From Amoebophrya sp. A120 (lineage: Eukaryota > Protista > Dinoflagellata), in the NCBI GenBank assembly GCA_905178155.1, contig CAJINV010000002.1:634422-698421 (forward strand): DNA of 64,000 nucleotides, given 5' to 3'. Below are positions 17,901 through 45,424 of this stretch, one piece after another. The notes below the pieces were generated by a model. It had not been told where the DNA came from, searched no databases, and saw nothing but the letters and a program-made list of their open reading frames with translations. A program made the position numbers and the translations under genes. The first letter of the stretch is position 1; each line of letters starts with the position of its first letter.

Positions 17901-20900
17901 CTGCTGCCTGCGAGAGTGCGACGTCGATCCCTAGGTCTGTACGATCGACCTCATCAATTAATTTTAGGCTTTTATCACTTCTACGACCTTCTTTTTCAAA
18001 TTCAATTGATTCTCCTGCTATTCATCGTATTAAAATAGTTTGGAAGTAGCGTTTGCACCTCAATCCAGCTTGACAACTACACGCCCCGCGTCACATTTCC
18101 AAACTCCGTCCGCCGACAACGCGAGGCGCCACGGCGCGGCGCCCACCGGCGCGAGGGAGGGGACGGGGAAAACAGAAACGGGCGCCCGCTGGCGCAGTCC
18201 CAGCGAGCGTGGGGGCGCCCTCCCTTTAGCAGGTTCGGGCGCGTGAGTTTCTGCCGGGAGGGACAGACAGGGCCGTGACTGGGTTCTGGGCTGCTAGACC
18301 CGGAGATGGGCGGCCCGAGCGGCAAAGCGCGCGCGAGGGGTGCGCACAGTCTTCGCAGGGCCGGATAAACCTCGTCCTCAAGGCGACCGCGACAGTGGCG
18401 CATTTCCAAGCGGTACGCCATCAGACGCCCCGCCCGACAGCTGCCCCAGCCATCTGCGAGTTCCGGTATGCTGGCGCTGCCGCCCTGGCGCTGTTGTTGC
18501 TGCATTGGCTTTTCGCAGCCAGGGTTCGCACGCCGCAGCTACCCTGCTGCGCGCACCTTTTGCAGCCAAAACAGGGTCTAATGCTGAAAACGTCAGCTCG
18601 GAAGGCTCGCGAGCTATCGAAACGGCAAACCGCTCGCGTTTTCCAGCTTTCCACGCAGAACGAGGGCCCTGCCAGTGCTTGGAGCGCAAGAAGTTTCAGG
18701 AGCGCAACACAACTTCCGCACGAGTAGAGAAAATTATATTTTTGAATTACAACGAAAAAGATCACCAGGAGCAAACCTCCTCCTCCTCCTAGTAACCACG
18801 CAAGAAATATTAATATTTTTCACTTTCTATTTTTTCTTTCATAAGTTGTAGACGAGCAGTCTATGGCTCCGGGGAGATGAAAACTCACGCTTAACTAACC
18901 TATGCCTTCAGTGTCCGCGATCCAGATAGAATTATTTTCTACTTCAATATATACTTGCAATTTTTTTTTTACTGTTCCTGTCGACGCCATCGCAAAGCTT
19001 TGCGCTTTTTTTAATTTTTCCTATCGTGCCAGCAATCTATTTTTTATTTATTATTTCTTCATCTACAAAGTCATGCTGTCGCCAAAGTTTGCTCTAGTTT
19101 CCAGTCTTCTCATGTCTGTATCGTAAATCTATCCGCTCGCAAATCAAGACTGAAATACTCGCTTTCGATCAAGATGGCGAGTATGCTGCATGGAGATGGA
19201 ATAGATACATCGCATGGTCGATCCATGAAGAACAACTCGATCCATGGTTATAGACTCGATCAATGGAGAGGAACTCAGTGGTCGCGCGGAAAAATAGAAG
19301 TAAGCGCTGAAAGAAGTCAGCTACTTTTTCCTACTTACAGAGACGATAGTAAATTGATGAGAAGTTATTCATAAACTAATCATATTATCGACGATTGCAT
19401 CTAGTTTATGATCAAATCATTATCAAATAACTTCAATGCTCATGATCATCGCGCTTTACTTCCTCTTTCCGGCGTGCTTCATCTTCATCTTCGTTGCACC
19501 TCCTTGATCTTGTTCCCCCTGCCCTTCATCGGCAGCTGGGTCCTCCTCCACCTTGACCTTGAGCGGATTCTTGTTCTTGGTGTTTTCTTTCCGCACCGGC
19601 GACTTATTTTTGTTTTTCTTCCCGGACGCGGACCCTGCAGCGGTTGGCTCCTCCGGGGCCTGCGCGACCGGAATCTGCTCCTCCTGCTGCTCCACCGCGA
19701 TATTCTTGCTGCTCTTGCGGTTCGGTTTCTTCAGCGGGGTCATCAGCTGAGCGTTGGCGGTGACGCTTTGTTTGTTCACCCGCTTGTTGTTCCGCTTGTT
19801 GTTCCCGTCCGCACCAGCAGCCTGGAACTGGATGTTGTCCTCCATCACAATGTCCTCCTGCATTACCAGGTTGGCCGGGTCGCGGGCATCTTTCGCATCG
19901 ACGTTTTTGCTATTCTTGCTCCTCATCGCTTTCATTTTCGGAAACTTCGGCTCCGCCGGCAGTCCGGCCCCTTCGGAAACATCCAACTCGTACCCAGCCA
20001 GGCCGTAGGCGCTGAGCTCCTGGTCGGTGTTGGTGGTGGTAGTGGTGGTAGTGGTTGTGGGGACGCCGAAGCTGCGGATGAGCAGCCTGGCCTCCGCCGC
20101 CCTCGACGGAGAGATGATGCCCATCCGCTGCACTAATTCGTCGATGTCGTCCTCCGGCTTCCGGACTGGACTGGATTGCTTCTTTTTGTTTTTGGTCGTG
20201 GCGCTCGGGGTCTGGTCGTCCAAAATCGGGTTGTCATCGATGTCCGGCCCCTCCGAGCCGAGGAAATTCAGCTCCGCGGGTTCTGCGCTTCCCTTCTTCT
20301 TTCGGCGACCCCGCAGGGCGAGGAGCTGTTTCCCCACAGCGGTGGTGTTGTCGAACTCCTGCCAGTATGAACTGCAAAAGTAGCGCACTAGTATAAATTG
20401 CATTACAAATCGGCTCAGCATTACAAATTAAATGTGTAATGCTGATTTCTCTTAAGACCTAGATTTGGAATGCATAGCCGCAATTAGTACGAGTGCGATA
20501 CTTTTGCACAGGATACCCAGTGCGGGAATTCTGGGATTATGTCGGAGAAATCCCGCTCCGTCGCGGTGATTTTCACCCTGATTTCCTCCGCTTTTTTGTA
20601 GTTACCTGTTTAGATTCACAAATTAATTGAAAACTTGCAGCCCATGTAGGAGAACTCACACTGAGACTCAAAAGTTGAAAACTTGAGTTTAGATTCAAAA
20701 ATCTAAAGTTGAAAACCCTACAAGTTCAAGCACAAGCACCGAGTTCAAGCGCAAGCGCCTACAAGTACCTACAAGCTCAAGTACCTACAAGCTCAAGCAC
20801 CAGTGCGAGCGCATTACAATTCCCAAGTGCAAGTGCGTACAACTTCCAGCACAAATGAAACCCTACAAGGGTACAAGATCAAGTACCTTGTTCCCCCAGC

Positions 20901-23900
20901 TCAACAATTTTCGCGATGTCCGGCTGCTGGATATCCTTCAGATGCTTCGAAAAACCCAGCACGAAGTCCTTCCATCCACCGTTTTTGCTCTTCGCATTGA
21001 AGGCGGCGACCGCTTTGTACACCTCCTGCCGGTCTTCCGCATATTCGGCCAAACTGGTGCGACTCTTCACCGCACCGACGCACTGCGCCAGTACGTGAAC
21101 CCACGGGTCGTACTTCGAGTCCTTGGGCTTGCCCTGCTCGGTCCACAACAAACCGAGCGGGGGGCAGAATTCCTCGTTCGTCCGCAGCTGTTTCAGCAAC
21201 AGCTGGTGCTCCGATTTCTTCGCCGCGCTAACCGCCCCCGGCATCAGCTGTTCTATGCACGACAAGAACTGCTGATGCCGGGAGAGGAAGCGGGCGGGCA
21301 AGAAATAACCGTCCTTGCTCAACATACATTCGTGAAAACCCGTCATACCATCCAGGATGGGTCGAAAGTCCTCCAGACCGTCAAGCAACAGGCTGACGTC
21401 ATCGCCCAGCCTCGACATCCATTCGAACTTCTGCGCCGGCTGGATGATCTGAAGTTTTGGCTTGGGTTTGGAAATAAAAGCACTGGCTCCGGGTGGGCTA
21501 CAACAACTTGCCTCGGTATCGCCGAAACAAAAAAGCCTTCGCTTGCCAACTAAAAACAAGCTTTTTACTGTCCAAGTAGGTGCGGCACTAGAATTAGAAA
21601 AAATAACTTGTACAATTTGCTCCGCTTCCATTCCCGGGAATTCCAGCGCAAAGCACTGGCTCATCACCTGGGCCAGCGTGTACCCGCGACTCGTGATCCG
21701 CCTGCAAATTTCCGGCAAACCCACCAGCTCCGTCTGGTTCCCAGTAGCCAACACTTTCTGGCACAGTGCTTTGTGCTCTGCTTTGATTTTTCGCACAGTG
21801 TCCTCATACCGCTCGTAGGTCTTGGTGGGTCCACGGTCCGCTTCGGCCAACTTCATCAGCAACGCGGCTAACTGTAGGAGAGGGTTGTACTATTTGATTT
21901 ATTTCCGAAACAAACTCCTCATGGTGTTTCTGGAAAAGTATTTGATTGGAAAAGCAACTACCGGCCGTACCGAAGAGCCAAAATTCTAAATCCTACCCGA
22001 GACCATTCCAAAACTAATTCGTAGAAGTACCTCTTCTTTCTTCCCACCGGCCGTCACTTGCGTATTCGTCTGCCCCACGAGCTGCTGCTGCTGCTTATTC
22101 TGCAAAATCGACTGCTTCTGCCCGAGCTGCTGCTTCATCGGCTTCACCGTCGTTGTACTTTTCAGCTTCTTCCCCTTCTCTCCATCATCCTCTTCACCAC
22201 CTTCTGGAGCTTCGTGTCCGCCTTCGAAAAGCTTTTTCGTAAGGTTCTGCGGCGTCACCGCAGCCGCGAGGTTGGACGGCGCTGAATTCGCAGGAGCTTC
22301 GGTGGGGGGCTCGTTGTCCTCCGCGTGCTGTTTTCATAGTTTGCAATTGTTATATCAAAGCTTGGCTATGCGCAACAAGTAGCAGCATGCTTATATTTAT
22401 CGGGGGCGAAAAAAAGGTTTGAAGATATGAAAAAAAACTCATATGACAAACAGCCGAAGAAAGCGAACGATGTGATGATGAGCGAATATTTTTCCCAAAG
22501 CAACAAACTAACCCACCTGCGGCTCGCCCTGCTCTTCCTCCTCGGCCTTCACCCGGTCCATGACCAATTTCCGGATGATCCCCCTCCGCGCTTTTTCTAT
22601 CCCGATCATACCGGGCAAGATGGTCGTGGTTTTTCCCTCTTCCAGCTTCATGCACAGCCGCTGGTAGTACGGCACGTCGAAGACGGACTTATTGGTCAAT
22701 TCGGCGTACGACAATTTCGACATTTGCTCGGAAGTCAGGTCGTACTGCAAGATTTTTTCCTCAGTCAACGGCTTCGCAGTGTACTGCTGGATGTGCGCCC
22801 AGGAGATGTCGGTCCACTGGTAGAAGTTCCCGTCCGAGCCCTGCAAGTACTTATGGACGGGACTGCTGCAGAGGGGATCAAATTGCTCCATATAGAAGCC
22901 TATCAACTTTAAAAATGTCTGGGTCTGGAAGATTCTGACACTTGTCATGCACGTTTTGCATGAGCCATGATGTCTGTGATGCATACCTTAGCAATACAGA
23001 TTTTTTGAGGGCTTCTTGATGCGTATTCCGCATGACAAATGCTTTCTCAGCGTAGCAAAAATTGCACTTCCTTTGGTACTCATGCAAGACAGATTTTTTT
23101 GGAATCCAAATGCAGCATCACGAGTTGCATTCTTCTAGACCCAGACATTTTTACACTTGATAAAGCCACTCACCGCGTCGTTTTCCTGGATGAGCTTGGT
23201 GATGTCCTCCAGGCGAGTGTTCTCGCCTGTTTTCATGTTATGGTAAAAGATGTTGTACAGCGTCTCATCTTCCACTGTGCAGACCAACGGTAAATCGTCC
23301 ACGATGCTGCTACTGCTCTCCACGATGCTGTTCTCACCCGCCTGCTCGCCCTGGCCATCGACCGCATGTTCCTGCTCCTGGTGGGAGGTATGTTCCTCCT
23401 CCTGGTGGGCCGCCGCCGCCGGGCCCTGCTCCTGGTGGGCCGGATTTCCCTCCGCCACATCTTCCCCGCCCGCCTGCTCCTCCTGCTCGGCGCCGGAGAC
23501 CTCCGAACTTTGCTCCAGGGGATAGTCCTCGATCGGCTGGCTGCGCTCCAGGGCGGCCTCCGCGCTCAACAGCTCCTCCGCCATGGTCATCTGCCCAGCA
23601 TCCGTCTGCATGTGCTGATCCGTCTGCACTTCCACTTGGTCATCCGTGGTGGTCGCCGGCTGCGGCTCCTGCTGCTCCTGGCTCTCTTCCGAGTTCATCT
23701 CCGCCTCCGAGTCATCCACCGCATGCAAAGATTCGTCGTTGTTACTATTGGATCCACCAGAAACCGCCGGCGCTTTCTCGGACTCAACATCCTGCTCCTG
23801 ACTTTCAGATTCCGAAGACTCTTCCTCGGATCCGGAAGATTGCTCTTGATTCGACTCCGGATTACTCGCCGCCGCTGCCGCGGGGGGATTGTTCATTTTT

Positions 23901-26900
23901 TGTTGGATGGAGTCGAGATTCCGCTCGACCCATTTTCTTCGTGCGTCGGAAGCGAGGGTTTGCAGGTGTTCCTGGTTGCGCTGTAGTTCCTCCTGCTGTT
24001 TCTGCTGCAGCTGCTCCAGGTGCTGCTCCCGGTACACTGCCGCCTTGTTTCCCTGTGCGCGTCCGTTCGTGATATCCAACAAACCCCGGCAGAGAATCTC
24101 CAAAGGCTTATCAACGCCCCGCGCTTGCAAAACCTTTTATTTTTGCGTTTTTTTTTTGAGTTACGAGATAACAAACAGTGCGCGACTACGAAAGAACAGG
24201 TTCGTCACAAAGCATATCAAGCGCACTACTTCACTGTGAGAAAAACTAGGACTACGGCACTACAAACACTCCACTACTGAAACTAACGTCTACCAAACTT
24301 TCAAAAAACAGAATCTCCATCGTCATCACTACTGTACATCGCAAAACGCCGCCCAGAACGCCGGCTCGCCGTCGAGGACGATCACTGTTCTGTTTGTAGG
24401 GTCCTTTTTGTCCTTTTCCTCCTGCATTTTTGCGATCTTCTTGTTTGCCAACGACACCAACTGTTGTTTCTGGTCGATCAGTATGAAATGCAAAAGTGTC
24501 TGGGTCTGGAAGGATGCAACTTGTCATGCTAAATCTGAAGCATGCAAAAATCTGTGTTGCATGAGTGCCAAAAGCTGTTCGCTTTCAATCTCATGCAGGA
24601 CAGGCATGAGAGAGACCTCACAAACTCTGTCATGCTAGGTTCCGCATTCCAGATCCAAGGGTCATGGAAAACCTGCTGCATGACGAGTTTACACTCTTCC
24701 AGAGCCAGACACTTTTGCACTTCATAGTCAGCAAGTCCAAGACCTGCGGGCTGTTGCTGCACAAAGCAGACTTGACGCCGTCCAGGTCGAAGACCGGGTG
24801 CGATAAGCCCAACCCTTTCCACCTGAAGAAAGGAAATCAACGCGACAGTCATGCTGAAATGCGACAAGCCTAAACCGTCAATGTTGAAGAAAGGAAAAGC
24901 ATAGTCATCATGAAAATCAAAATTATAAGTGCTCGCGATCATGAAAACGCCATAGCTGGCATGAGAAGCCTATCATGACAATACCAGTGTAAAAAAAAAT
25001 TACCAAGTCATAAACGTCTCCACAGTGCAATTGACGGCAACCCGTGCCATTAGGGTCCACATCACCTTGTGGACACCGTGGCGCAGGTCCCGACCGTTGT
25101 GCGGCGCGGCGTTGTAGACATTCTTTTTGAGTCGCAGGGCGAGTTGCTGGAAATTTGTTTTGTCCTTGGACTTTCTGTATGCAGCGCAAACAGAAATGAC
25201 TGGGCCTGGAAGGGTGCAGCCTGTGCCGTTGCATTTGATCACACAGCAAATTAAGCAGTCTGTCATGCGAAAGTAAGTTTGTCCTGCGGAAGTAGGTCTG
25301 TCATGCGAAAATATGTCTGCCATGCGAAAATAAGTCCGGCATCAGCATGCCCACAGAGAAAAAGTCTGTCATGCGAAAGTATAAAAACGGCAGTCATGCG
25401 GGAGCGACATCGTAGAGGACGCGAGTGCCGTGGCTCATGCATAACATGCATCACAAATCCCCACTCTTCCAGGCCTAGACTCATTTTTTTATCTGTCATA
25501 CGGTAATGCTGAAGCACAGCGGGCTCGCCCAAGCGTTCACCTTTGCGTGCGCGGCCCTCGGGGCGGCGTTAACATTCAGCATGAACTGCTTTAACAATCC
25601 GTCGACCCGGTCCGGTTCCTCTTCGTATTCATCCTCATCGCCCAGCTCCGCATTTGAATCGAAGTCGAGGTCGAACGGGTCCCTCATCGCCTTCTTCTTT
25701 TTAGCGTCTTTTTTGGCTTTGGCGGATTGTTCGCAACCTGAGTTTTGGTTTTATTTTGCTAGTCGATTTCTTTGCCACTCAGGGCCATGCGTTTACTCTT
25801 ATGGCGCAGACTGAGTCTAATACTGTGGCATCTTCTATCTACCTAGCTATGTACTAACCATGCAAAAGCTTCGCGACGAGGCTATCAATATAGGAATAGC
25901 TCATCTTATAAACGACAAAGAACTTGCAGCTGCGGCAGCTATGGGCTGCCGTTTTTGTGTGAAAGAGGATAAAAATACGCTGCTGCGCTTCGGTCAACCA
26001 CTGCTGGAACGCCACCGTACCACGTAATTTCCCCACTTGCTTCGCCGTGGGCTTTTCCTGCCGGAAGTGCGTCCTGCACTCGTTCTGCAATCCGAGCGGA
26101 ATCTCTTCCCATTGAAGGTTCAAACTTGACAAATCCTTCTTGGTCAGCCCGACGCCCTTTGCTGCTTTCTGCAGCTCAGCGAGCGCAAACTCGGGAGTAA
26201 ATTTCCACGCCATGGCTATGCTTTTACTTTGTTGTTGTTCAGAATTAAAAGTTTTTTCGAAACAAACGGGTTTTTGAAAATAGATTTTTGGCGCTACGAA
26301 AGCACCCCGTACTTGGCTCGGGTTACCTAAGCAACCTGCTTGTGTTTGGTAATCGAGGACGAAGGTTTTTCTGGGTAGTGGCAGTGGTAGTAGCAACAGT
26401 AGTAACACTAGTAGAAAGAAGTAGCACTAGCAAGCTTGCTAGCTTCTGCAATGAAGGACTTGCTTCCACAAAGAAAAAAAGAGTGACAATCTTATACATA
26501 TCCAGGAAAAAAAGGACGAGCTCGCGCCCACCATGGACGAGAAAAAACGGAAAAAAAGAACCGATGGGAGCACGGAAGTGGTGCTTGCGCTCCTGGGTGC
26601 ACTCGTGTGTCACTCTATATTTCTCAGCTTGCTACTCACAAAAACACGCGGACGGAAATCAATGAAGCGCGCCCACAAGAAGGCAATCGAGCCGCTAGTA
26701 GAGGCTAGGACTTAGAAACGAGGTCGAGCCGCCGCTTCAGTTATTAGGCGCAGCGCAGGCGGACCGCACCTACACAAACAAAAACAGGCTTATGGACCCA
26801 CCAGGAGAAACAACCTAATGTTGTAGGCCAGTGAACATAGATATCTATGCTAAGGCCGCGGGCCTTCTCCAGCCTCCAGTGGCCCGGCCAATTTGTTCCT

Positions 26901-29900
26901 GTTCCCACAAGCGGGGCGTGTTCGTTTTTTCGTGATTTGCAGCTTTTTTTTCGCGTTTTGCAACTTTTTTTTCGCGTTTTGCAGCTTTTTTTTCGCATTT
27001 TCCTTCTTTTTTATTTGTCCTTGCCGGTTTTCGATCGGGTTTTCTCCAGCCAATTGCGGGAAAGCGAATTTCCTTGCGAGTGGCCGGGCAGCCCTCGAAC
27101 GAAAACCCGCAAAACCCGAAAAAAAATGTACAAAACGCAGCAAAAAAATCCCGAAAACGCGAAAAAAGATGGCAAAACGTAGAAACCAAACACTGCGGCC
27201 CACCTGCCGCCGCCGGGTGGCAAAACAGCCGAAGGCACGGCTTCCCAACATTAGGGCAATGGCGGACGCGACAAGACAGATGGCCCGCGGCATCCGGGCT
27301 CGAAGCAAGTCATGAAGTTCCACCACAAATCATGTCCAAAAAAATCAGAATCATCCGCCAAAAAAATCAGAAAAATTCGGCAAAAAATTCGGCAAAGTGC
27401 GGAAAACCCTAAGTGAAACCTAAGTTGAGCCTAAGTTTTTCCTAAGTGAAACCTAAGTTTTTCCTAAGTGAAAGTTGGGCCATACCATGCGGCTTCACTT
27501 AGGTTTGACTTAGGTTTGACTTAGGTTTGACTTAGGTTTGACTTAGGTTTCACTTAGGCCAAAATCCGACCCCCCTCATTTTCGACTTAGGTTTGACTTA
27601 GGTTTGACTTAGGTTCGACTTAGGTTCGACTTAGATTTCAAGTAGCCCTCGCCGGGGTTTCGAGTGGCTGCGGCATGAAACAGGCGCGCGCCGCTTGTGG
27701 AATTTCGGGAGGCCAATGCCCGCCGTTTTTTGCCATTTTCGCAAATATTTTTGCCATTTTCGCAAGTTTTTTTTGCGATTTTCGCAAGTTTTTCTGCCAT
27801 TTTCGCAAGTTTTTTTGCTAATTTCGCAAGTTTTTGTTGCGAAGCTGAGCGCGGAACCGCGAAAAACGAATCGCCGGGAAGGATCCCACCGGCAATGGCT
27901 TGTAGGCCATGAGGGTGAGGCCCATAAATAAAGAGGCCACGCGCCGAAAATACCCCGGGGACCCCGGGCGGCCAGATGTCATGCTTCCCGTCCCAAGCAC
28001 CTTGTTTTTCTGCGTTTCGCAACTTTTTTTCCCGATTTTGCGAAAAAATGTCCGGAAACAAGAAGAAAAGGGCCACCGCTGGCCCCCCGCAAGCCCAGGC
28101 GACGCCCCCGGGGGGGGCGAGGGAATGAGCCCAGGCGCCTGGGCTTCCGGGGGGCCAACGGTGGCCCTTTTTTCCCTGTTTCGTAAGGTTTTTCCGCAAA
28201 AGCGGCAAAAAAAGTCGCGAAACGCAGAAAAACGAGGCGGCCGGGGCCCCCGTCGGCACCCGCGCTAAGTTTGCGGGGAAGGGGAGCGATTCCACGGCAC
28301 CCGGGCGCACGGCCCCAGGCGCACTGCTGAAAAGGGCCACACACTGGTCCCGGCCGCGCGCCTTCTTGCCTTTCTCGATTCCGACGGGCCCGCGTTCATT
28401 TTTCGCGATTTGGCCATGAAAAAGCCCAAAAACGCCAAAAAAAAGGGTAGAAACGCAAAAAAAAATGCGCAAAAGCGCCAAAAAAACCCCAAAAAAGCAA
28501 AGTCCAAAGCGCCAAAAGCCCAGGCGACACCCCCGAGAGGGAAGGGGGAGCAGCCCAGGCGCCGGGGCTCGCGGGGGGCCAACGGTGCCCCTTTTCTTGC
28601 TGTTTCCCAACATTTTTCCGCAAAATCGGCAAAAAAAATGGCGAAACGCAGAAAAACGAAGCGGCCGGGAACCCCGTCGGCGGCCGCGCTGAGTGCGCGG
28701 GAAAAGGAAGCAACCCCACGGCCCCCGACGAAATGCTGAAGAAGGCCGCAGCCCGGTCCCAGCCGCCCGCCTTCTTGCTTTTGCGGATTCCGGCGGGCCC
28801 GCGGTCATTTTCCGCGGTTTTGCAAAAAAAAGCCCAAAAACGCAAAAAAAAAGCCGAAAAACGCCAAAAAAAAGCTGCAAAACGCAAAAAAAACGCCAAA
28901 AAAAGTCCAAGCAAAGCGCCAAGCGGCTTGTTTCTCTTTTTCTCTGAAATGGCTCCGGTCGCGTCTTGCACAACCTCAAAAAATGATCCTAAGTATTTCC
29001 GGCAAAGAATGATCTCCAGAGATCACATTCGCCATACCATAGACCTCACCTTGTCGTCGGTCTTTCAAAAGTGGTTTCGTTTTAGTAATGCTTCGTCAAA
29101 TCCTTTTCGCGGTCTGTCTCGCTCTTTGGATCGCTGTCTAAATTGCTGCTGAGCTTGATTGATTGATGCTTCCAGCAAAGCTCTCCATTCAATGATAACG
29201 AAGCACGACGCGCTTCAATATCCTCGGGGGGCACTCTCGTATTGCAAACGCGTTGAATTACCATAGCGCCTCATAAAATGTTGAATAAATCAGCAGAACG
29301 CCCCAAAAAAACCTTGCATCTGGTGTCTCTCGTTCGCACGACGGCTGCTGGCTGGTGTCATTCCGGCGGCAAAAGGGTCTCTCGCGGTTGCGCTTTGGCT
29401 GCTGGCTGCTTCGGCGCGGGCCCGGCCCCCGGCGCCACGATAGCGCGACTTCCAGCTTTGGCTTTACCGCCCGCTTTCGGCTTAGCCTTTACTCCCGGCT
29501 TTGCACCTGTTCGCGCCGTGGGTGCCGTGCGTCCAATGCTGCCCGGCAGCGCGGACGGAGCCGCCGCCGGGGGTGGCGCAGTCCGGCTCGGCTCGTTTCC
29601 GGAAGCTGCGAGCAGTGGCTGGGCCGCCTGCTTCCCTATCGGCTTTGCGTGCTGTTTTTTCGGATTCTGCTTCTGCTGGGCCTGCCCCCGCGCGGCGCCC
29701 GCTGCAGCAGCCGCTGCGGCGGCGCGGTGCTTTTCCAGCGCGACCGCAACTTGAGTCAGGGTGGTCACCGTACCCAACGTAACCTCCTTCAACCTGGTGT
29801 AGGTGGCCACGCGGCCATACTTTCCGAGTTTGCTACCAACTATGGAAGCCAGGGGGCGGGCGTATTTTTCCAGCTCGCTCTGGATGTACTTCAAGCGCTC

Positions 29901-32900
29901 CTCTGCGGTCCCGAACTTTTGCGTTACGTCGCCACGCTTGAGAGCTACGTCCAGAAGGAGAGACACGCGGCAGGCGTACAGCCTCGCCAGCTTCCACGCG
30001 GTGTCGGAAGTCTCCCGCTTCAGCTGGTAGTTGAATGTCCGCACGCCGAGCTGAGACCGAAGGCCGAGGATCTTGCGGATCGACTGTCCGTACTGTGGCA
30101 AAGCGCACAAGACCGGAAGGTACTTGCGGTAGACCGGCTCCAACGGCTCCACCTTGACGCTCCTCTCGCTGCTTATTGTTATGGAGAAGCCCCGGTCGGT
30201 TGCGCCATGCCGAACTGTTAATCTCTCTGAACGGAGACGACGCTTCCGCTCTGCCGTCGAAAGCAAGTGCAGGTATTGGCCCCGGGCTTCCGGGATTCCG
30301 CGCACGGCGTCCTTTTCTTCACCACTCGACTCCTGCTCACTCGCGGAGCCTTCCTTCTCACTCGCGGAGCCTGGACCTGGGCCTGCGCTGCTGGAGGTGG
30401 CGGACGACGTGGCTGCGGACGACGACGTGGAGACCTCGCGCTCGGCCGCAAGCTTCCGCGCAGGCGGAGCCGCGTTTTCTGGCCTTTTCGATTTAACTTT
30501 GCGAGCCGCAAGACCGGCTACCTTTGGCTTTTCGGGTAGAACAGAATCCCAGGCCATCAGCGGGTTCCGACGGTTAGAACCGCCCAGACTCTTCCCGCTA
30601 TCTTCGTCGCTGCTGCCAAAGTCGATGTCTGCTTTCTGCACCAGCTCGACTTCGCCGCTTCTGGGAATTTGCACAGTAAAACTCTCTTCCACTGCTGCAA
30701 CGCCACCGCCTTCAAGCCGCACGGAATGAAGGCGGATTTTCTTCTGGTCGAAGAACCGCAGGCGGTTTCTGTACTCGGGTGAGCAGAAAAACGCGTCCGC
30801 CGCAAGTGTCTCCGGCAGTCGCACTTCTTTGAGGTCCTTCTCCGCGTCGTAAATCGGGCTCACCATCACGCCGCCGAAGGCGTACGGTGAGCGCGAAATG
30901 TAGTACACTAGGCAGTACGCCGGAAAGCAGGCAGCGTCTTTGAAGATTTTGTTTGCGGGGACGAACACAAGATCGGCGCTCTGCTGCTGCTGTTGGCCGC
31001 CGCCCGGTGCTGTGTCTTCCCCGCCGTTTCCCTTGGGCCGCACCCCGACGGAGAACTCGATCAAAATGGCATTTTCGGGTCGGGAGGAAAAAAACTCGTC
31101 AACCAACGGCATCTGATTCTGAAACAGCTCACCAACCTCCACTGCCTCGCGCCGCCGCTCCTGCACTTCGTATATCCAGGCCGCAAGCTTTCCCCAATTC
31201 TCTTTACATGACCGGGAGGTTTGGACCCAGGCGCATAAGCGCTCGACCCCGGACGGTGGAAAGCGGTACAACTCCGTCGCGACTATGCCGCGGGCTTCTT
31301 CCAGGCCCGGGATTTTTTCGCCATACAACCGCGCCCGCAGATCATCGCGCTGCTCGCTCTTTTTGTACTGCAGCTCCGGGTTCTTGTCGCTCCTGTGTGC
31401 CTTCTTGCGTTTATTCTGTCCCGTCCCCACGTTGGCGTAGAAGTGGAGCTTCGTCAGCTCTTTCAGTTTGCTGTAGTACCGCAGCTGGCATGATGCGCGG
31501 TCATCTCTCTCTATTTCAGCCCGCACACGCTTCTGTCTCTCCGCCCAGTAATCTGCCTCCGCTTTTTCCTGCGCCTTCACCTGCTGAACCCGCAGCTGCT
31601 CGACCTGCTGCTGCAGATTGACGCGATCCTTATCCATCTCCTCTTTAAACTATGAAGTGCAAAAGTATCGCACTCGTGCAAATGCATTACAAATTTGAAT
31701 TTCCTCAGCATGAAAAATAAAATAAAAATTTGTAATGCGCATTTGCCTTAAGAAAAACATTTGTAATGCATGATTGCAATACGAGCACGATACTTTTGCA
31801 CAGGATATAAACTTCTGGCCAACAATGCCCGTTTTCCCTTTTTTGTACAAGTTCGAAACACTGACGACGCGCTTCTTCTTTGCAAGCTCTGCAGCAGTGT
31901 ATCCGCCCGGAAGGACCGGCGACTTCGATGTGGAATCGGATCGCTCTGACTCGGACTGCGATAACAACTCCGACCCAGATGAGAGATCCGGATCGAAATC
32001 GCCGTCAGAGGGCTCGCTTCCGTATTTCTTGTAGTCCTTCGCATTCAAGCGCCCCCGCAAGGCGTCCTGCCGGATGAGAATGGAAGAAATCCGCAGTATG
32101 CCACGGTAGGCAGACTGGAACTCCTGCTGCAGCAATTTCCCCCGTCCTAGCTTTTGTTCTGCGGTCGCCTGCGTTCTCGGGCACTGGCACATCCCAGCCA
32201 GTACCATGTCAACGAATTTTACTCGCCGGCTGTGATCCGAGATCCGAAGCAACTGCTTCCTCCAGATGGTCAAACACACAGAGCCGCACGAATTCTCTGG
32301 GAACTCGGGAGCGTGGAAGAGGAATTTGCGAAGATAGGTGGAGCGCTGAGATTCCTGGCCCGCTTCCGGTGAACCGTTATCCAAAGCCGCGGCGGTGTTG
32401 TATTCGAGACAAAACTTCTGGAACGGGCAGCGATCAACGCTTGCGATGATCATGTGGAACATGACCGCCTCCGCAACGAGGGCGTGCTGCGCCTTCGCGA
32501 GTAGGTCCTTCTTCTTTTCCATCGTCAGGAGAGCTTCGCGCAGCGTCACAAACTGCATCTCCTCCAGAATCTGCGTCTCCTCTTGCAGGACCTGAAACGC
32601 TTTCCGAAAGCGTTTCTCGGCTGTCCGCTGAAGCTCCACGTTGGTCTCGTAAGTGTGCCGCTTCTTCAGAAACGAGAAGCTCGAAAAATCGTCCAGCGGG
32701 TTGGCAAGGTACCCGAGCAGAAGATGCGCGACTCTGTAGCAGGCATGCTGCAGCCCTTTGTTGTTTTTCACCAACTTCCACTCCTCGACCGAAAGGTAAT
32801 GTGGAGCATTGTCGCCCGCGGAAAAGATCATTTCTGTGTACCCGAGTGCGTCAATCACGGCCAGACGGCGGCAGGCGCGACCAAAAGTCAGCCACCTTTG

Positions 32901-35900
32901 GTGGGTGGGCTGCTTCAGCAGTCTGTACAAGGCTACCCAGGCCTTGACAACGTTTGTTTTCTGTTCCTTGCTCTGCACCGATATTTTCAGCGGGACACCG
33001 TCTCCACCCGGGTCCAGCTCCACGTATGCGTCCTCCATTGCTTTCGCAAGATCCCGCTCACGCATGTGCTCCAGGAACCGGCTCCAAGACCCGATGGCGT
33101 GTTGGTTCTTTAGCCTGTGCGCCGCCTCCTGTCCGGGCAGGCCGTTATAACCCGGCCGAATCTGCACAACCTTGTCGGCCTGCTTCTCTACGATCTCGCG
33201 AACGGTGGCAGAGCTCATGTTCATCTGCCTCGCCTGCAGATACGTCTTTTTCTCAATGAGCGGCATGTCCAGCTTCGTCGTATCCAGTGCAAAAGCGTCT
33301 GGGTCTGGAAACGTGGAACTTGTAATGCTGGTCTTGTAATGCTGGCTTGCAGTTGCTCCCCGGCATAACCAACAAAAGCTGCAACTGTTCTTGTCATGCA
33401 GAAAAGCAATCTCTCACGCTGGCTGCCTGTGAGAAAACGTTTTAGAAAGTTTTCACGCTTGGCTGCATTCACAGCTGTTTCCGTCACCCACGTTTTAGCA
33501 TCACAAGTTTCTTTTCCAGACCCCGAACTAGATATCTGCAATGCATACGTTGTAGTTCCGAGTAACTGCGAGGCGTGCTTGCCGATGTTCGCCGTGCTGT
33601 GCTCGTCGCAAGGTACAAAAATCGGCAACCACACCAAGGCTGGGCACTCCCGCTCCATACGATGCTCGACGATGAGGATGGAGCACATTACAGTTGCGCT
33701 TTCGGCGCCATCGCCGGAAAAGATTGCGGCAAAGGGGTCGGAAATACCATTGAACTCTAGTCCGTACGACATCACGGTGTTTGCGAGGCGGACGGCATCG
33801 CGCTCGTGCGGCAAAAGGTCCGGGTGGTGGCTCAAGCGATGCGGGGGCTTGTAGTGGATGTGTATCGGAAGGTTCGGAACCCGTGGCCATTTATTTGGCT
33901 CTTCCCCGTCGACAGCAAACCAGCAGCTGCCGTGGCAGACCGTCCACATTGCGCTCGGGTTGAGCGTCCGCTTCTTCGTCCTGGTGCCCCTCGACGTTCC
34001 GTCAACGCAAAACCGCGTCATCACTGCGCACTTCCCTGCAATTTTGTATGCTTCGCGCAAAGCTTTGGGACTTGCTGTGACCGCGAAGTCACTCAAAAGC
34101 ATCGCAGTCTTCAGGTACCCATCCGTTCGGGGGTTGCTGCGGTAGTTGAAATACTTCTCGACATACCTGCGGATCTTTTTCTGCTTTTTCTTCCGCCGGC
34201 GCTGCTTCGACATCCTGCAAAACCTCCCCATCTTGTTTCGTTTTGTTTTCCGTTTACGCGGCGCTATCTCACAGAAATTTGCTAGCTTATATGAATCTGC
34301 TTGCTGACTCCCGCAGGACAAAGACGGCTGCTGCTGCTCCCCATGCATGACTGAAGTGCGAAGTCCAAATCGTCCCGGGTCTGCATTACAAGCTGCAGAT
34401 AATTCCTATTGTTTTGGAGCACGCAGGTGATGACCCATGCCCTATTCTTCACTTCGTTATACTTATATTAAGACTGGGTCTACAACGAGCAAGAGTTCGT
34501 TGCTGAGAAGCTAGCGTTTTTCTGTCAGATACGTGAACCGCCGTCGCCGGAGCCGTCTCCATCGGACGAGGGCGCTGAACTCAAAGATCGCGATGATTCT
34601 GCTCGCGATGCGGACCCGGAACTGCTGCTCCGACTGCTCTCCGAATCCGTAGAAGAAGACGACCGAGAAGTTTCTGACGACGCCGCCGAAGACGTTGCAG
34701 CCCCGAGCGCCCTGTTTTTGCGGCGCCTTCGCCGCTTGTTCTCTTGTTTTCGTTTCTCCTCCGCCCGCGCTGCAAGAGGTGTGGCCTCTCGTGCCCGCAT
34801 TTTTCTTCGCATCACCGGCTTCGCTTTTCCACCCGCCTTGGCGCGCGGCCGCGGTTTCCCAATTGGCGCCGGAGGCTCACTATCAAATGCGAAAATGTCT
34901 GGGTCTGGAAGACTCTGAGATTTGTCATGCATGTTTTGTATGACAACCCAGGATGGACGTCTGTAATGCACAACCGCGCATCACAGATTTTGAGAGGACT
35001 TCCTGATGCCTACTCCGCATGAAAGAAGAACGCCCTCCCCGCGTAGCACGAACTACTAGACTCCATTTGCTGGCCATGCAATACAGATAGAGTCCAAAGT
35101 TAGCATCACAAGTTCCGATCTTCCAGACCCCGACATTTTTGCATTTGATACTCACCGCCTGCTGACGATTCCACCGAGGACGATTCCTGGTGCGCTACCA
35201 CCGCACGACGAGCAGCGGCAGCGATGTTTGCGAGCGGCTGAGCAGGGTGGCGGTTTGCGCATCCTCTGGAAAAACATCGATCTCCCTGCTTCCGGATTCA
35301 GGCACTGCCTGAGACTTCTGCTTGGCATCACAAGTCGTAGATCCAGACCACATGCATCCATGGAGACACCCCGGACTCGATACAAAAGGAACGAACAGGA
35401 AGCTACAGCTAATATACAAATAGAACAAAACTAATAGTGAACTTTGTCGACAGAAGATCCTACTACGAGTCGAGTGTGTCTCCTCTCACTGCAGCGAAGG
35501 AAGTCAAGGAGAGCTCCACCCCAATGAGCGGAGGGTACTGCTGCAGCCATGCCGATCATTCTACGGGCTATTTGCAAACTCCGACGCTCGCGAGCCTTCC
35601 GAGCGTCCGGAACGACGATACCGTCGCGCTTGGGCAGGTGGTGGCGCCGTCTCTAGCAGATCCGCGAACAAGAAGTGAGCTCCAGCGGGCAGAAACCCGT
35701 GTCGTACAGCCAGAAGGTCGAAAAGCGCAGACGCAACAAGACGAAACGCGGCGACCGCGCCTGCCTATAAGCGCGAGGGCATCTTATTTTCTGGCTCCTG
35801 GTGCAGAAATCGACTCGCATACTGTGACGCTTTTCATTGGCGTCTTGGAGGACGAAGAAACAGAAGTTAGCAACTATAGCGACCCTCTCACGCGAGGACG

Positions 35901-38900
35901 AGCGTACTTCTCTGGAAAAAAAACATCGGCTCTGGGCAAAAAAAAAACGCTCTGAGAAAAAACTACTCCTCTCTTGCGAAGAGGAAAAAAAAAGACACGA
36001 TAGCAGCGAAAACAAAAATCAAAGAAGGGAGGTGGAACCCTGGACCGGGAAAACGCACAGACAAGAAAACACCGGCGAAGCAACGCAGTCCCTGGGTCTA
36101 CCTAGTAAAAAAAACGTCGCTCTTGCCGAAGGGCTGCGCTAGGTAGCGAACCAACACGAGGCTAGCGCCCCTCCAATGACATACGAAAACAAAGTAGCGG
36201 ACCCCTCCAATCACATACGAAAACTGGCGGATCCATGCGTGACGCAAGGACCACTTTTACTTTACTTTAGGACATACAGACATTAGCTCCTGGCTCTGTA
36301 ACTCACGGACAGAAACAGGCACAGGAAAGCGATAGTAATCGCCTCGCTTCAATTTGTTGCGGCGCGACACGGGCGGCCTCAGATGAAATAAGGTTTTCAA
36401 CTTACACTTAGTATACAGCGGAGTTCTTTCGAGTGGTGCCCGGTGCATCTCTTTTCCTTCGGTAGTGCCGCCCTTTCTTTTTCAGAATTTTTTTGCGATC
36501 GAGGGCAGAAGCAGAGCTTTTTATTACTAAGCTTTTCCATTGGTAGGCTTGCTGCGATGGATTCGCTTTCAGTTAGTTTTGTTTTCGTGAAATCAAATTC
36601 AATCATTGGTAAACTCATTGGTATCAATCTTAAACCGATATGAAAACTCGTGCTAAGCGACACAGATATTTTTTGCTGTGTCTATTGTGGGCGAGCACGA
36701 CTATCAACCCACCTATTCCTATTTTGTAAACTTCGAGTCGCGATTTTTCTGCTATTCTAACATACTTCGACCACCAATAAACTATAGGCATGGCGTCACC
36801 TTATTAATTTTGTTCATCACCCAGATGGAGTTGCTTGCTTTTCGTAATTTACATACTTTTTTTTTCACATATAGCGCCACTCTTCTCATGATCCACTGCG
36901 CCGCTTCTTGCCGCTCTGTTCCGCCGCCCCCGCCACTTCTTGCTCCGCTTGTTGTGGCCGCTTCGGCGACCCGGTGCTGGAAGACGCGCGCCGGTACAAC
37001 AAGTCGACGATACCTGTGGAAGCAGGGGAGTCGTCCATTGCTTAGCACCGACCACATCCTGGAGCTCAGGAGCAGCGCCATGCAGCTTATTCATAGACTA
37101 CTAAAATAAATTTGCTTTTCTAAGTAATGTCTCTTTCTACATGATGAATAGGCCAAAAACAACCAAGGTAGTTTTAGCACCTTCCACCGCCCGCTCAAAG
37201 AGGAGCACTCCCTCGTCCGATATCGCGAGCGCATGCGCCTCCAACTCCACGAGGAAGGGGCGCAGGATGGGGGCGGACATCTCCACTACGTCGGCCAGGT
37301 CTGCCTCCGGGAGATGCGGTGTGCGAAACCGCCGCTGGATCATGTTGATCAGATCCGCCAGCACGACATCGTCCGCCACGGTCGGAACCTGTTTGGTAGT
37401 TTTTTTTCCGAAGATAGAAGGGCAGCGCGTACGCTGCTTTCATGTCTAGTAAGTAACTTACTATGAAACGCAAGCAATAAATGTGGAGCTCTGACATGCA
37501 AGTTAGTAGCTCTTTCATGTGGAGTTCTGAAACATAAGGAATAAAGCCTTTTCATGCTGTTTCTGTCATACGAGTGCAAATGCAGAAAGATACCCCGCCC
37601 GGGTAGGAGCGCGCTGCGAGCCCGGGTAGGAGCGCGGGTAGGAGCGTTGCGATCCCGGGTAGGAGCGCGTCAAGTGCGCCGCCGACCTGGGAAGAGTGTG
37701 AGAGTGAGTCAATTTATTATGGCTCAGTTTGACCACAACAATGTAAAAAGTAAGCGAAAAACACATGCAAAAGTTTATTGCTTGATGCAAAAAAAAGCGA
37801 CGCAAATCAATATAAATATTAAAAAACGAAGTGAGTCACAACTTTTGTCGAAAGTGCAAAGTTAGTAGCATGCTGCTAATGTCCCGACCAAGCAACGCGT
37901 CGTGGATCAATGACCTATGCCGAACGAAAAGAAAGAAGCAGGGAACAGATAGGTGAAATTAATATACTTCATACCATCAATCCGCCCTCCTCCTGCAAAT
38001 TACGCACTTCCACCGCAGAGCCTGCCGACGCCGAGTCCTCGTCGCGTACCTCGGGAAACGGCGGCGCGATGTACGCGAGGCCGATCGGATCGCCCAATCC
38101 GGCATCAGAGGGTGTATCTTCTCCAGGGGCGGGACAATCCGCGCTCAACGAACGCGGACGCGTGCTCGTGGCTTGCAGCTGCACGATGACGCACTTGTTC
38201 AGGGTGCACGCGTTTAGGTTCACGCTCATTTTATGTTGTTTTTTTTTAGAAAAGGAAGATGGATGGATCTAGCTGCTAGAGGTAGAGCCAATTTATATTC
38301 AGAAAACGAAGATCTAGCGGCGAGAGGTTGAGAAAAGGAGCATCTATTTGCGAGAGTAGCTACCAAATAAATTTATTATTATTGCGCGGCCCTGCATAAG
38401 CGAAAGTAACAGCGATGCTATTCTAAACGAAAACGCAGCATCAGGCCGGCCATTGCCAGAGCGTGCCCAGGATGCTGCTGCTATTAACAAATAAATTTGC
38501 ATAAGCGGTCGGGCTGAATCAAAAAAAGAACCGACGCATGCGCTAATCAATGCCGGGTTGAAAAAACAAAAAGTGGCCAAGCACTTGGACTGCATTGGAT
38601 TTCTAGCATAACATGGGGCTTGGCGTGCCGGAACTTTGGGAGTGCAGCCGGTTTTTTTCATGAATTAAAAAAGCTCGACCACGCTTACTGTACTAGTAGA
38701 GGCGGCCATCAAGAGTCAATGCTTGCACTCCGCCCGCGATACCTGACACGGACGTTCCCGGGCCTAACATACAAAACATCCATGCCTGGCGGTGCAAAAA
38801 AAGCGGGCTGACATACAACCAGTCCAGACGATGAAAAAAAACGGCGCTGGCAACGACGGCGAAAGACGATAGAAAAAACGCGGTCGTAGACGATGAAAAA

Positions 38901-41900
38901 AGTACACTTTGTGACGCTGTTGCAGATATGACGCCTATCACTTTTATTATGGTCCAAGAAACAACGCACAAGCTCTCTATCCACCAAAAAAATTCTCACT
39001 TCTACGGTCCAAGAAACAACGCACAGGATCTGTATCCACAAAACCAAAGGCACGACGGAGAACATCGAATTTCTTTGTAATGCGGGGGGACAGATGGATT
39101 CGTGAGCTGAGAAGGATGGACTCATTTGCTTCTTTCTGTTTTCTGCTGCTGAGCTCGAGAGCGAGAAGTGAGCTAGTTAGTTTGTCGCACGTAGTGCGCT
39201 GTGGATCGCATTCAGGCTGTTCATTTTCATTTTTCTTGTCACTCGCTCGAGCTTGGTTTTTCAGATCAAGAACTGCAGCGGGTGATCAGCGAGCTTGTTT
39301 TTTCAGATCAAGGCTGCGCCTAATATCAAGGACACAAGTCACAGCTGCTGCCGCTGATGCTAAGCTGCGCCATCGGATTCATTTGACACAATGACGGCGA
39401 GGGTGTGGGTTTGTTTCTGTGGTTAGCCCAAAGTAAGACACGTTTCTTTGCACGCTTCTCAGCCTCAGCCACCAAGTCAATCAATAAAGCGCGGCGCGCT
39501 ACTAGCAAAAATTGCAGAAATAAACTGTAGCTGGTGTTTGCGCGTCGCATATCACTCTGAATCAAGCGGGCGCGCAATTGCTTTCGCCTTCTGTTTGTCA
39601 AGCATCGCTGTGAAGATTTCGGTGCCGAGAATGAATGCCGCGGCTGTTCGACTTTGCGACGGACCCGAACGGCAAACCTCGTGGTTGTAATAAGTTTATG
39701 AATCAACTTGCGACGCAAAGAAATTCATTCCCATTCTCATAGTTTCTCATGCATGATGATAATTCAACGGGCTTCAATAAAGCGCGCTATCTCAAAACAT
39801 AATCTCGGTACCGCTCTTAGCTCGATTCGTGTTGTCGTGGATGCGTTTTCGAACTCGAAATCTTCAGCACCGCATAGGCTTGGTGAATCGCTTCCATGCT
39901 TCGTCCGGCCTCGGAGTTCGGTCGTTGGTTTTCCGTCCGGTTGCCGATTGTGCTGCGAAACTGCAAACGGTTTTCTGGAAATCTCGAAGCCATCTACTTC
40001 GAATCGATTCCAAATGAATCTGTTTGACTGTCGAGGAATTCCATAGTATGCGGATTTTTCCACGCCATTGCGCCCATTCCACGCCGACAACATATTCCGA
40101 CGCTGTTGCCCGCTAAAACGTACCTGCACCGCGCCCATACGCCCCGATTTGTTTTATTTCCGCGGAATTTTTGTTTCCGCTGGAGCCCTCTTCCGATTCA
40201 CAATTCCGCGGCTCTGCGTCAGCCGCGAATCCACAAAAACACTTAGGTTTCACTTAGGTTTTACTTAGGATTCACTTAGGCCAACACTTAGGTTTATCGA
40301 GAAAAACCATTACTAACATTTTTTAAAGCCGACCCTGACTATGCAAGAGCAGCAAGACAAATTATTTTCTGTTCCACAATGAGCATCAGAAGTTGTTTGC
40401 ATTCTTCCAGATAATTACCCAGATTGACGATATTTGCATTTGATAGTCGCCATCAGTGTCGTACATGCCAGCCAGGTCGTTCGAGCTGAGCGTATATCAA
40501 ATGCAAAAATGTCTGGGTCTGGAAACTTGTGATGCTGCGTCGCGAATAGGGAGTGCTCTGTAATGCACAGCCAAGCATGAGAAATATCTGCGCTTCTTTG
40601 TGTTGCGTTTTTCGCATGACAAACTGCGTTTTTGCATGACAGGCAAAAGGGTTTCTTCTTGGACACGCATCACAAACTTTTTGGTCATCCCAGACAAGCA
40701 TGACAAATCTCGCAGTCTTCCAGACCCAGACATTTTTGCATTTGATAGCGTATCGTGATGGCCGACTTGCCCCATCAAGTGCGCTTTGGGTTATGGATTG
40801 CAAAAGTACTATCGGGGTAGTACTATTAATTGCAATACAAATTGGGTCAGCATTACAAATCCAATTTGTAATGCGGATTAACCTTCTCGTTCTCCTTCAC
40901 AACTGAATTTCGTACTTAAATGCATAGCTGCAATGAGTGCGAGTACGACCCTTTTGCAATTCATACGAATGAGGCCGCGACAAATTCGTCCGGACTAAAC
41001 TTGTCATTCCTTCTATGGGAGTGCACAACTCGTCCCCCTCATTTGTGCCGGGGCAGGAGAAGCAATACAAGCATCGGCCTCGACGAGGAGATGAATGCAG
41101 GTTTTGCATGACAAATTCACATCGAAGACTGTAGTGCTGTTTTTGGTCGTCCCGAAAGAACTTGCCATGCGAATCGTGCAAACTGATAGATACTACTACT
41201 ACATGGACCACTGGGCAGTTTGCATGACAAACGAGGGGAAGTAGGGGGAGTTGTTGTCCACTCTCATACGATCCATCCAGCATGTTGATGGGACCGTGGC
41301 GTTCAAAGTCGGTCTCCGTCAGCTCATGATCCGGTCCCGCCATGAGGTGGAAGACATCGGGATCCCCTCCCTTTTCTACCCATTCTTTCTCCGAGACGTG
41401 GCCCGGCGCGCCATATCAAAATGAAACATCCCCCCGCCCAATATAATCAAAATGGAAATCTACGATCATGCGGGATGTGTGTACACAAATCGAATTTGCC
41501 TTGCGGTAGAGGACTGCACGCAGATCCCGAGCCTACTAGGCCGGGGGATTCACTTCGCGTAGGCGTCTAGCATGGCAGACGTCTCCTGCCCTGTAGGCCG
41601 CGGCCTTACAACATGATTACAAACCGCCCGCATAACGCGGCGGGCTCTCTGAATTTGCCGTCTTGCAAGACAGACAGGATTCATCGTGGTCGTTACAAAT
41701 CTGCATCGAAACTTTTATTCTTTGGAAGGATGCGCTTTTATAATAAATATGGAAATGGGGGGATTTTTCCTCACAATACGCCGTCGTCGTTCGCCATGTC
41801 CGACAGGTCGCCCCACGAGAACCGGCCGGCCGGGGCGTGGTTGTCTGCTAGGTTATGGATGAAGTTTGTGTCCGCCTCTTTCTGGTGCTCCACCAGTGCT

Positions 41901-44159: not shown

Positions 44160-45424
44160 CTTGATTTAGGAGGAGAGACGATGGACCAAGTTCACGAGTT
44201 GAGATGACATCTCAATGAATGTATCATTTTTATCGGCACTGCATAATGGTCTTTGACATTCAGATTCAGCACAAGTGCGAAAGATGAAAAAGATTTGTTT
44301 TTGTTATACTGGTAAGAAGTACAACTTCGGCACCATCTTCACGCTATTGACGCATGCTACACTTCTTTCCCGCGCCACCGACGTCGTAACTCGCACGCAG
44401 AAGTTGTGCCCCGATTTGCAGCAGGCCGCTTGTTGTAATGATACCGTGGAGCTGCTCTCTACTCGTTTGATGGACACGTCGCCACTTTTTGCGTCCCACG
44501 CTCAACGAAAAGTACCAATTGCAGGAGCCCGCTCCTCGCTCATCAAAACCAATTGTAATTCCTATTGCACCACCGGAGCTCTACCTCACAATGAAATGCT
44601 TTCTCAAGTAGAACAGGAGAGCCAAAGCTTCTCTCACCCTTTGCCGTGTGATGGCGACCGCATGGAAATGGAAATGGAAATGGAAAGGGGTCCTGAAGAA
44701 ACGCGTCGCTCGTTGTTTTCCCCGGAGGTGGCTAATAGTTCGACACGATTCAGTTTGTTCGCCAGCCTGGTGGCTGGGTACAAAATTTCTCTTCCCCGTT
44801 ATACGGTAATCGTCGTGGTACCCATACTACAGCCCTGCAATGGATTAATAATTTTATCTACTGAAGATTTTATTTAAGATGGGTTAATACACTGCTGAAG
44901 AAACGTGGTCGCTGGCATCTATACAATCGATTTACTTGCAAGTTCGAGTTGTTATTCTTTGTCTTAGAATACATCAAAATTTCCCAAAGGATAAGGAGGT
45001 ATCCTAGGCAACACAAAATCGAGTTTCTTATGCCTCTCCACTACGATAAATGATAAAGGGCTACTTACTGTGCCTGTCCAAAAATGATTCAACTTTTTCG
45101 CGTCTCTGCTACTTAAAAGGAAAGAAATCAGATCAAAACAACAGTGCTGTATTTTCAAAAAAACTGTAGAAATAGCCCTAATAAAATTGTAATTTGGTCG
45201 TGCTAGAAATGCTTGTGAAGAAACAATTGAAACAATAACACCCGTTGAAATTAACCCAATTAAGTGTAGCGCCAGTAAGCGCTTGAGCTTGACTGCACTC
45301 AAGTGCGCGGCTCCTATCAAGGCATGTGTAGTTGTGCCCGCAAGTATTGGTACTTTTGAAAAAGTTTTACTGGAAAGATACATGTTGGCTTTTTTGACGT
45401 CCCTCCCACACCTCCTTTTTTTTC

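Follow-up and report, generated by a model that had tools for sequence, protein, structure and literature searches.

A predicted hAT-like transposase gene within a probable 26-kb element with introner-type ends in Amoebophrya sp. A120

In the 64-kb stretch of Amoebophrya sp. A120 DNA analysed here (contig CAJINV010000002.1, positions 634,422 to 698,421; hereafter the window), a 26-kb element with introner-type ends surrounds a gene for a predicted hAT-like transposase. The encoded enzyme is likely to be the missing enzyme that spreads introners, or a relative of it. The reading put forward is that the enzyme family would have mobilised the giant element as well as the genome's TAT…ATA introners, to which a probability of roughly 0.6 is assigned. 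An earlier note, made from the sequence of the window, had described the gene, which is real, but missed the element that carries it.

It is highly probable that the gene is carried by a true insertion of this size. Removal of 25,963 bp, together with one copy of the flanking target-site duplication (TSD), joins two minus-strand exons of a host gene into a full EF-hand loop, as scored with the PROSITE pattern. Among the 127,820 joins tested, 72 produced an EF-hand match, three of these also had a TSD with at least 4/5 identity, and only at the left end of the element was an arm resembling a terminal inverted repeat (TIR) present as well. In addition, arrays of an 11-bp repeat that lie in inverted orientation near the two ends (14673; 40241-40292) led to an inverted alignment of the end regions over about 300 bp, which scored 94 where the null reached at most 57 in 287 trials, and the ends resemble the arms of a 250-280-nt introner family. 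In a relaxed scan, the giant-element pair ranked tenth of 32 end pairs at long range, most of which are motifs internal to introners; thus, the case for the element rests on the longer alignment, the repeat arrays and the rejoined exons rather than solely on the 40 nt at the termini. The element escapes a search near the gene for TIRs that end in TA, since C is the first base at its left.

The gene itself is interrupted by introners (Table 1). The earlier note had proposed that three apparently unrelated open reading frames (ORFs) fuse once two introners are spliced out, and the fusion holds: when 33281-33547 and 31651-31807 are taken out, in each case along with one copy of the 5-bp TSD, 1,518 stop-free codons result on the minus strand (34348 to 29358), a frame that stays open whichever TSD copy is dropped at each of the two inserts. 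Retention of introner 1 results in a frameshift, and retention of introner 2 in an in-frame stop codon. The two-introner gene model was incomplete, since the start codon assigned to it (34348) is part of a third introner, and there is a fourth further upstream. When introners 3 and 4 are also spliced, the frame is open for 1,653-1,697 codons, a range set by the splice choice at the fourth introner, and the first ATG common to both splice models of that introner, at 34812, gives 1,583 amino acids. The length of about 1,500 amino acids given earlier is therefore that of a real fusion but not of the whole protein, which is probably at least 1,583 and about 1,600 amino acids long, with 34812 as a candidate N-terminal start.

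The transposase ORF runs for about 4.7 kb without a stop codon or frameshift after four insertions, whereas 2-20 nonsense changes would be expected at 1-10% neutral divergence, by a clock that is rough and weak. An ORF that is open where nonsense changes are expected is suggestive of selection after the introners had inserted. Judged from the sequence, the ORF thus appears to have been kept by selection after the insertions, and its product could act in trans.

The motifs that the note had placed in hAT order are present in that order in the spliced protein, namely VDGT (D116), GDGA (D213), CDEH (C247/H250), PTHQRW (W395) and PRTQATAE (E640). A phmmer search with exon 2 identified 12 homologues at E <= 1e-3 (best E 2.4e-26); nine of the ten whose origin was looked up come from Amoebophrya AT5.2, and the tenth clusters with an AT5.2 protein. 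The AT5.2 homologues are uninterrupted and match exons of all three ORFs, colinear across both junctions; junction 1 is gap-free in five of the seven homologues that span it, and junction 2 falls in a linker of weak conservation. Of 13 homologues, 11 have RW, eight have the Glu motif, seven have GDxAE, seven have CxxH, and six have the first Asp. All five features occur in one chain in four of the 13, the others being partial gene models or fragments, and the spacing from the second Asp to the Cys is 34 residues in the window protein and in all seven homologues that have both. Two of the homologues, P0007 and P0011, are consecutive AT5.2 gene models (g15498 and g15499) that correspond to two transposase halves, and are probably one split gene. 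Other searches were less productive: word-based protein searches gave nothing new, scans of metagenome and viral contigs revealed no relative, Pfam assigned no transposase family, hAT included, to four exons and 12 homologues, and PDB sequence searches returned no significant match and none to a transposase.

For the fold, the comparison with Hermes transposase that the earlier note had suggested was run on homologue P0005, for which an AlphaFold model was built from 15 alignment rows that included the window exons (predicted local distance difference test, pLDDT, 69; predicted template modelling score 0.68). Folding exon 2 from its single sequence gave no usable model (pLDDT 38). An RNase H-like fold is predicted, with the RNase H strand order, the first Asp in strand 1 and the second where strand 4 ends; in the same model, the CxxH lies just past strand 5, a helical insertion follows, and the Glu is placed in the helix after it. 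Such placements of Asp, Asp and Glu are the usual positions in DDE (Asp-Asp-Glu) enzymes. In Foldseek, Hermes occupied ranks 1-11 (best E 2.4e-4), above ISCth4 (rank 12) and RAG1 (rank 20). VIA aligned 372 residues of P0005 with Hermes residues 143-609 (Z 11.9; root-mean-square deviation 5.3), the Z scores of others being 10.3 for Cas9 (123 aligned), 9.4 for Tn5 and 7.3 for the P element, and the top match in a viral structure search (BFVD) was a hAT protein. In the Atlas, which is used here as a lead only, the ten best family-labelled matches all belong to the hAT family or clan, and PF05699 is found on neighbours with scores of up to 0.89. PF05699, the C-terminal dimerisation region, had no hidden Markov model match in the exons or homologues, and the structural match reaches Hermes residue 609. 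The key residues of Hermes are D180, D248, R318, W319 and E572, and the hAT terminal consensus is (T/C)A(A/G)NG, as given in the available text of PMC6027215. The corresponding D, D, R, W and E are present in order and conserved in homologues, their equivalence being assigned by motif and secondary-structure position. It is thus very likely that the window gene encodes a hAT-like DDE transposase. The earlier proposal of a divergent hAT-like enzyme that needs introner splicing is supported by conserved motifs in homologues, by fold searches in which Hermes comes first and by the splicing of elements of the same type that RNA reveals in a neighbouring gene.

A quite improbable alternative is that the introner-mobilising enzyme falls outside hAT, in a CxxH superfamily of its own that would be the sister of hAT, MuDR, P, Kolobok and Dada. 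All of these and IS256 share the CxxH motif in the account of PMC3706591 available. The window exons and 12 homologues have no Pfam hAT match, and PDB sequence searches gave no match to a transposase. No BED finger was found in the scanned exons, up to position 35297, or in homologues, in agreement with the note. The termini deviate from the hAT consensus, the second Asp and the Trp are 182 residues apart as compared with 71 in Hermes, and a tail of 878 residues follows. The RW pair and the Trp-to-Glu spacing (245 versus 253) nonetheless follow Hermes, which also ranks above ISCth4, the P element, RAG1 and Tn5 in the fold searches, and the family-labelled Atlas matches, as a lead, point the same way. 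The tail had been described as some 800 residues of unrecognised sequence; no family is assigned to it, but it is not wholly featureless, as it contains a coiled coil and, in two blocks, sequence that the homologues conserve. The C-terminal exon had no usable match in the Atlas.

Elements of 100-350 bp with TAT[CG]…[CG]ATA inverted ends are abundant in the window (78 candidates, as compared with 0-3 in each of three shuffled controls), and an exact TSD of 5 bp flanks 32 of the 78, with none having an exact TSD of 6-9 bp. Contigs from the RNA runs place 12 of 15 listed joints (30 in all) in the gene at 44690-49100 on the minus strand, which is expressed and whose listed joints are mostly introners with non-canonical ends. 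A TAT element was matched by script at nine of these 12 joints, and all nine skip the element plus exactly 5 nt; the remainder are one ordinary GT-AG intron and two joints without a TAT-element match. Host splicing removes a TAT introner together with one TSD copy, as seen in the RNA of this neighbouring gene. Amoebophrya A120 introners are described in the accessible part of the genome paper as having inverted repeats (TAT, seven nucleotides, AAA), short direct repeats, hairpins and non-canonical splice sites (PMC7789003). The four inserts in the transposase gene share the traits of this type, with inverted repeats starting in TAT, a short direct repeat, a hairpin and a multicopy nature; introner 3 has the arms, a decayed TSD and no relative inside the window. 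Introners of strain A25, by comparison, begin with TTA. Introns with AG..AT ends had raised Fritillaria as a possible host, a candidate set aside since both the homologues and the end motif indicate Amoebophrya.

In the mechanism proposed, a BED-less hAT-like enzyme would bind TAT-type ends and move elements by cut-and-paste with a 5-nt stagger. Short non-autonomous derivatives could then multiply in exons, with permissive host splicing removing the element and one TSD copy, and such derivatives would also have landed in the transposase gene itself. Because the reading frame has to be intact, the enzyme can now be made only if the introners inside its gene, which are its own passengers, are removed by splicing. 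A broader version is possible but doubtful: an undescribed, giant, cargo-carrying hAT-like lineage with a 5-bp TSD would drive intron invasion in Amoebophrya, the whole 26 kb would be spliced as one non-canonical intron that restores the EF-hand gene, the transposase would be regulated by splicing of its own MITEs (miniature inverted-repeat transposable elements), and the central palindromic repeat may organise synapsis.

Several observations weigh against mobilisation of introners by this enzyme family. The fold was modelled on a homologue and not on the window protein, and the root-mean-square deviation is high. The left terminus and the TSD each have one mismatch, only one such element was seen in the 64 kb of the window, and a search of the short introners in the window with an 18-nt two-unit pattern did not find arrays of the 11-bp end type. 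DNA depth on the transposase gene is at the unique background, a measure that does not give true copy number and that indicates no near-identical second copy of the gene. No RNA contig or read from six RNA runs was found at the transposase exons or junctions; contigs show presence and not absence, and three of the runs cover neighbouring genes whereas the other three matched only introner fragments and are uninformative. The lack of RNA, and the 32 end pairs of the relaxed scan, would fit a dead, never-spliced remnant whose giant ends were paired by chance; this is highly improbable, given a frame of about 4.7 kb that is open after four insertions where the rough clock predicts nonsense changes, an EF-hand rejoin that is unique among the joins tested, and an end alignment above the null. 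The giant copy does look aged, as judged from the altered first base, the TSD mismatch, the nested and decayed introners and the background DNA depth; it is probably immobile, and continued mobility is unlikely.

A further point against the proposed role is that an A120 family, fam38, is labelled Ginger, with a 5-bp TSD and TA/TA termini, in the dataset of PMC12130899; the main text of that paper, as far as available, describes fam38 as lacking Ginger homology, termini and TSDs. The label bears on the main rival explanation, in which the transposase is a passenger or domesticated gene and the 26 kb is a composite between introner-type ends that was moved in trans by a Ginger or integrase-like enzyme, also the maker of introners. 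TSDs of 5 bp are usual for integrase-type enzymes, whereas canonical hAT enzymes make 8 bp. The transposase gene is apparently single copy, its ORF is intact though the element ends are aged, and the AT5.2 homologues are singletons with 25-42% mutual identity, all of which speak for it. This explanation is rather unlikely, since the inverted 11-bp array at both ends is not expected of a chance pair of introner ends, and the simplest driver is a cut-and-paste transposase lying inside the ends; moreover, hAT5 families make 5-bp TSDs in the available description (PMC12730594). The preferred reading remains that the hAT-like enzyme family mobilised both giant element and introners.

Table 1. Features of the giant element, the transposase gene and the interrupted host gene (positions are those of the window)
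Feature	Position	Strand	Remarks
Host exon downstream of insertion	14418..14477	minus	completes EF-hand loop in frame
Left TSD copy	14478..14482	plus	GTTGC
Giant element	14483..40445		25,963 bp; introner-type TIRs; in coding exon of minus-strand host gene
Left end	14483..14784	plus	introner-like arm, first base C not T; two 11-bp CCTAAGT repeats at 14673-14690
Cargo ORFs	15931..26426	minus	15931-17076; pieces 19456-24136; 25854-26426; some with nested introners
Central block	27405..27645		11-bp end repeat in both orientations; axis ~27483, 19 bp off element midpoint
Last transposase exon	29358..31645	minus	coiled coil, two homologue-conserved blocks, low-complexity tail, stop codon
Introner 2	31651..31807	minus	157 bp; perfect TSD; AG..AT ends possible
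Transposase exon	31808..33275	minus	helical insertion domain, RW (Trp codon 32894), presumed catalytic Glu (32159)
Introner 1	33281..33547	minus	267 bp; TSD 4/5; long RNA hairpin, z = -5.6
Transposase exon	33548..34263	minus	first Asp (codon 34003), second Asp (33712), CxxH (33610-33599)
Introner 3	34265..34531	minus	267 bp; TSD decayed to 2/5; GT..AG available
Transposase exon	34533..34880	minus	basic, Ser-rich N-terminal region; ATG at 34812 is first in frame
Introner 4	34881..35150	minus	270 bp; perfect 5-bp TSD
Probable upstream transposase exon	35151..35297	minus	degraded introner-like sequence ~35261-35382
Right end	40198..40445	minus	TATCAAATGC-type introner arm; five 11-bp repeats at 40241-40292, inverted relative to left end
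Right TSD copy	40446-40450		GTCGC; 4/5 identical to left copy
Host exon upstream of insertion	40446..40494	minus	ends in first half of EF-hand loop

The element and its surroundings differ in composition. The GC content is 51.9% inside the giant element and 47.0% outside, and a scan that missed introner 1 counted 5 introners in the 26 kb inside as compared with 41 in the 38 kb outside. The cargo ORFs are orphans of unknown function with no database match: Pfam gave no passing match for nine of them, PHROGs was blank for nine ORFs, and no viral or known gene was detected in the cargo scanned. The central block, which was observed post hoc, may be due to chance or may represent a central binding site, and is flanked by A-tract repeats with a spacing of about 21 bp (26850-29000); that the block is the junction of two tandem elements was rejected, as the repeat order is reversed. 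One contig from the RNA runs has loose ends on both sides of 40193-40318, the subterminal array, which suggests related ends elsewhere in the genome. The host gene (approximately 9000-14477 and 40446-43870, minus strand) encodes a hydrophobic segment at the N-terminus and numerous EF-hand-like loops on both sides of the insertion; it is split by introners into exons of 12-230 nt, and its upstream part is present in an RNA contig.

The way in which introners move is still debated, and for most families no autonomous partner is known. The A120 genome paper, in its accessible text, reports that no transposase was found, and general transposase-mediated mobilisation of introners was ruled out on that ground (PMC7789003). 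In a later survey, none of the 58 A120 families in supplementary file 8 is finally classed as hAT (PMC12130899). One of these, family 135 (row 553 of the file; 4 copies, alignment of about 18.8 kb), carries an automatic flag for hAT5/hAT6 termini and is finally listed as non-LTR/Unknown; it may be another giant element. A published search for autonomous partners, as described in the available part of PMC9860276, considered 10 kb between ends and compared unspliced ORFs with known transposases, settings under which an element as long as 26 kb whose enzyme is split and divergent would go undetected. No description of the giant element or its enzyme was found in the open-access literature, Repbase and subscription journals lying outside this scope. 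The locus puts forward one enzyme as a candidate, together with its catalytic residues and the ends that would be its substrate, so that introner mobilisation can be tested directly. It is also an instance of a transposase gene invaded by the type of element that it probably mobilises.

When compared with Hermes (PDB 4D1Q) and other hAT transposases, the window enzyme shares the D-D-CxxH-RW-E order and an RNase H core with a helical insertion, and has its best PDB and BFVD matches there. Tandem subterminal repeats near both ends are a hAT trait, and the giant element has them likewise. Unlike Hermes, the window system has no BED finger and no PF05699 match, and the enzyme is about 1,600 amino acids long, with a conserved but unassigned C-terminal half, and resides in a 26-kb element with cargo. 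The termini are of the form TAT[CG]A, the giant element ending in TATCA and CATCA in place of the hAT consensus, and the TSD of both giant element and introners is 5 bp and not the canonical 8 bp. In this last respect the closest likeness is to hAT5, families with a 5-bp TSD within the animal Blackjack lineage (available text of PMC12730594), which share with the window system a hAT-type enzyme and the TSD length. Giant DDE transposons with cargo are also on record, for instance Teratorn, enlarged En/Spm and Pack-MULEs, which are similarly bounded by TIRs and exceed 20 kb with extra ORFs, in the portion of PMC6431247 at hand; the window element differs from these in its hAT-like enzyme, in ends shared with intron-forming MITEs, and in its insertion site within a coding exon. 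The end motif of the window elements (TAT, seven variable bases, AAA) is the motif published for Amoebophrya A120 introners, which are described as non-coding in the available text (PMC7789003), whereas the element with such ends reported here spans 26 kb and encodes a transposase.

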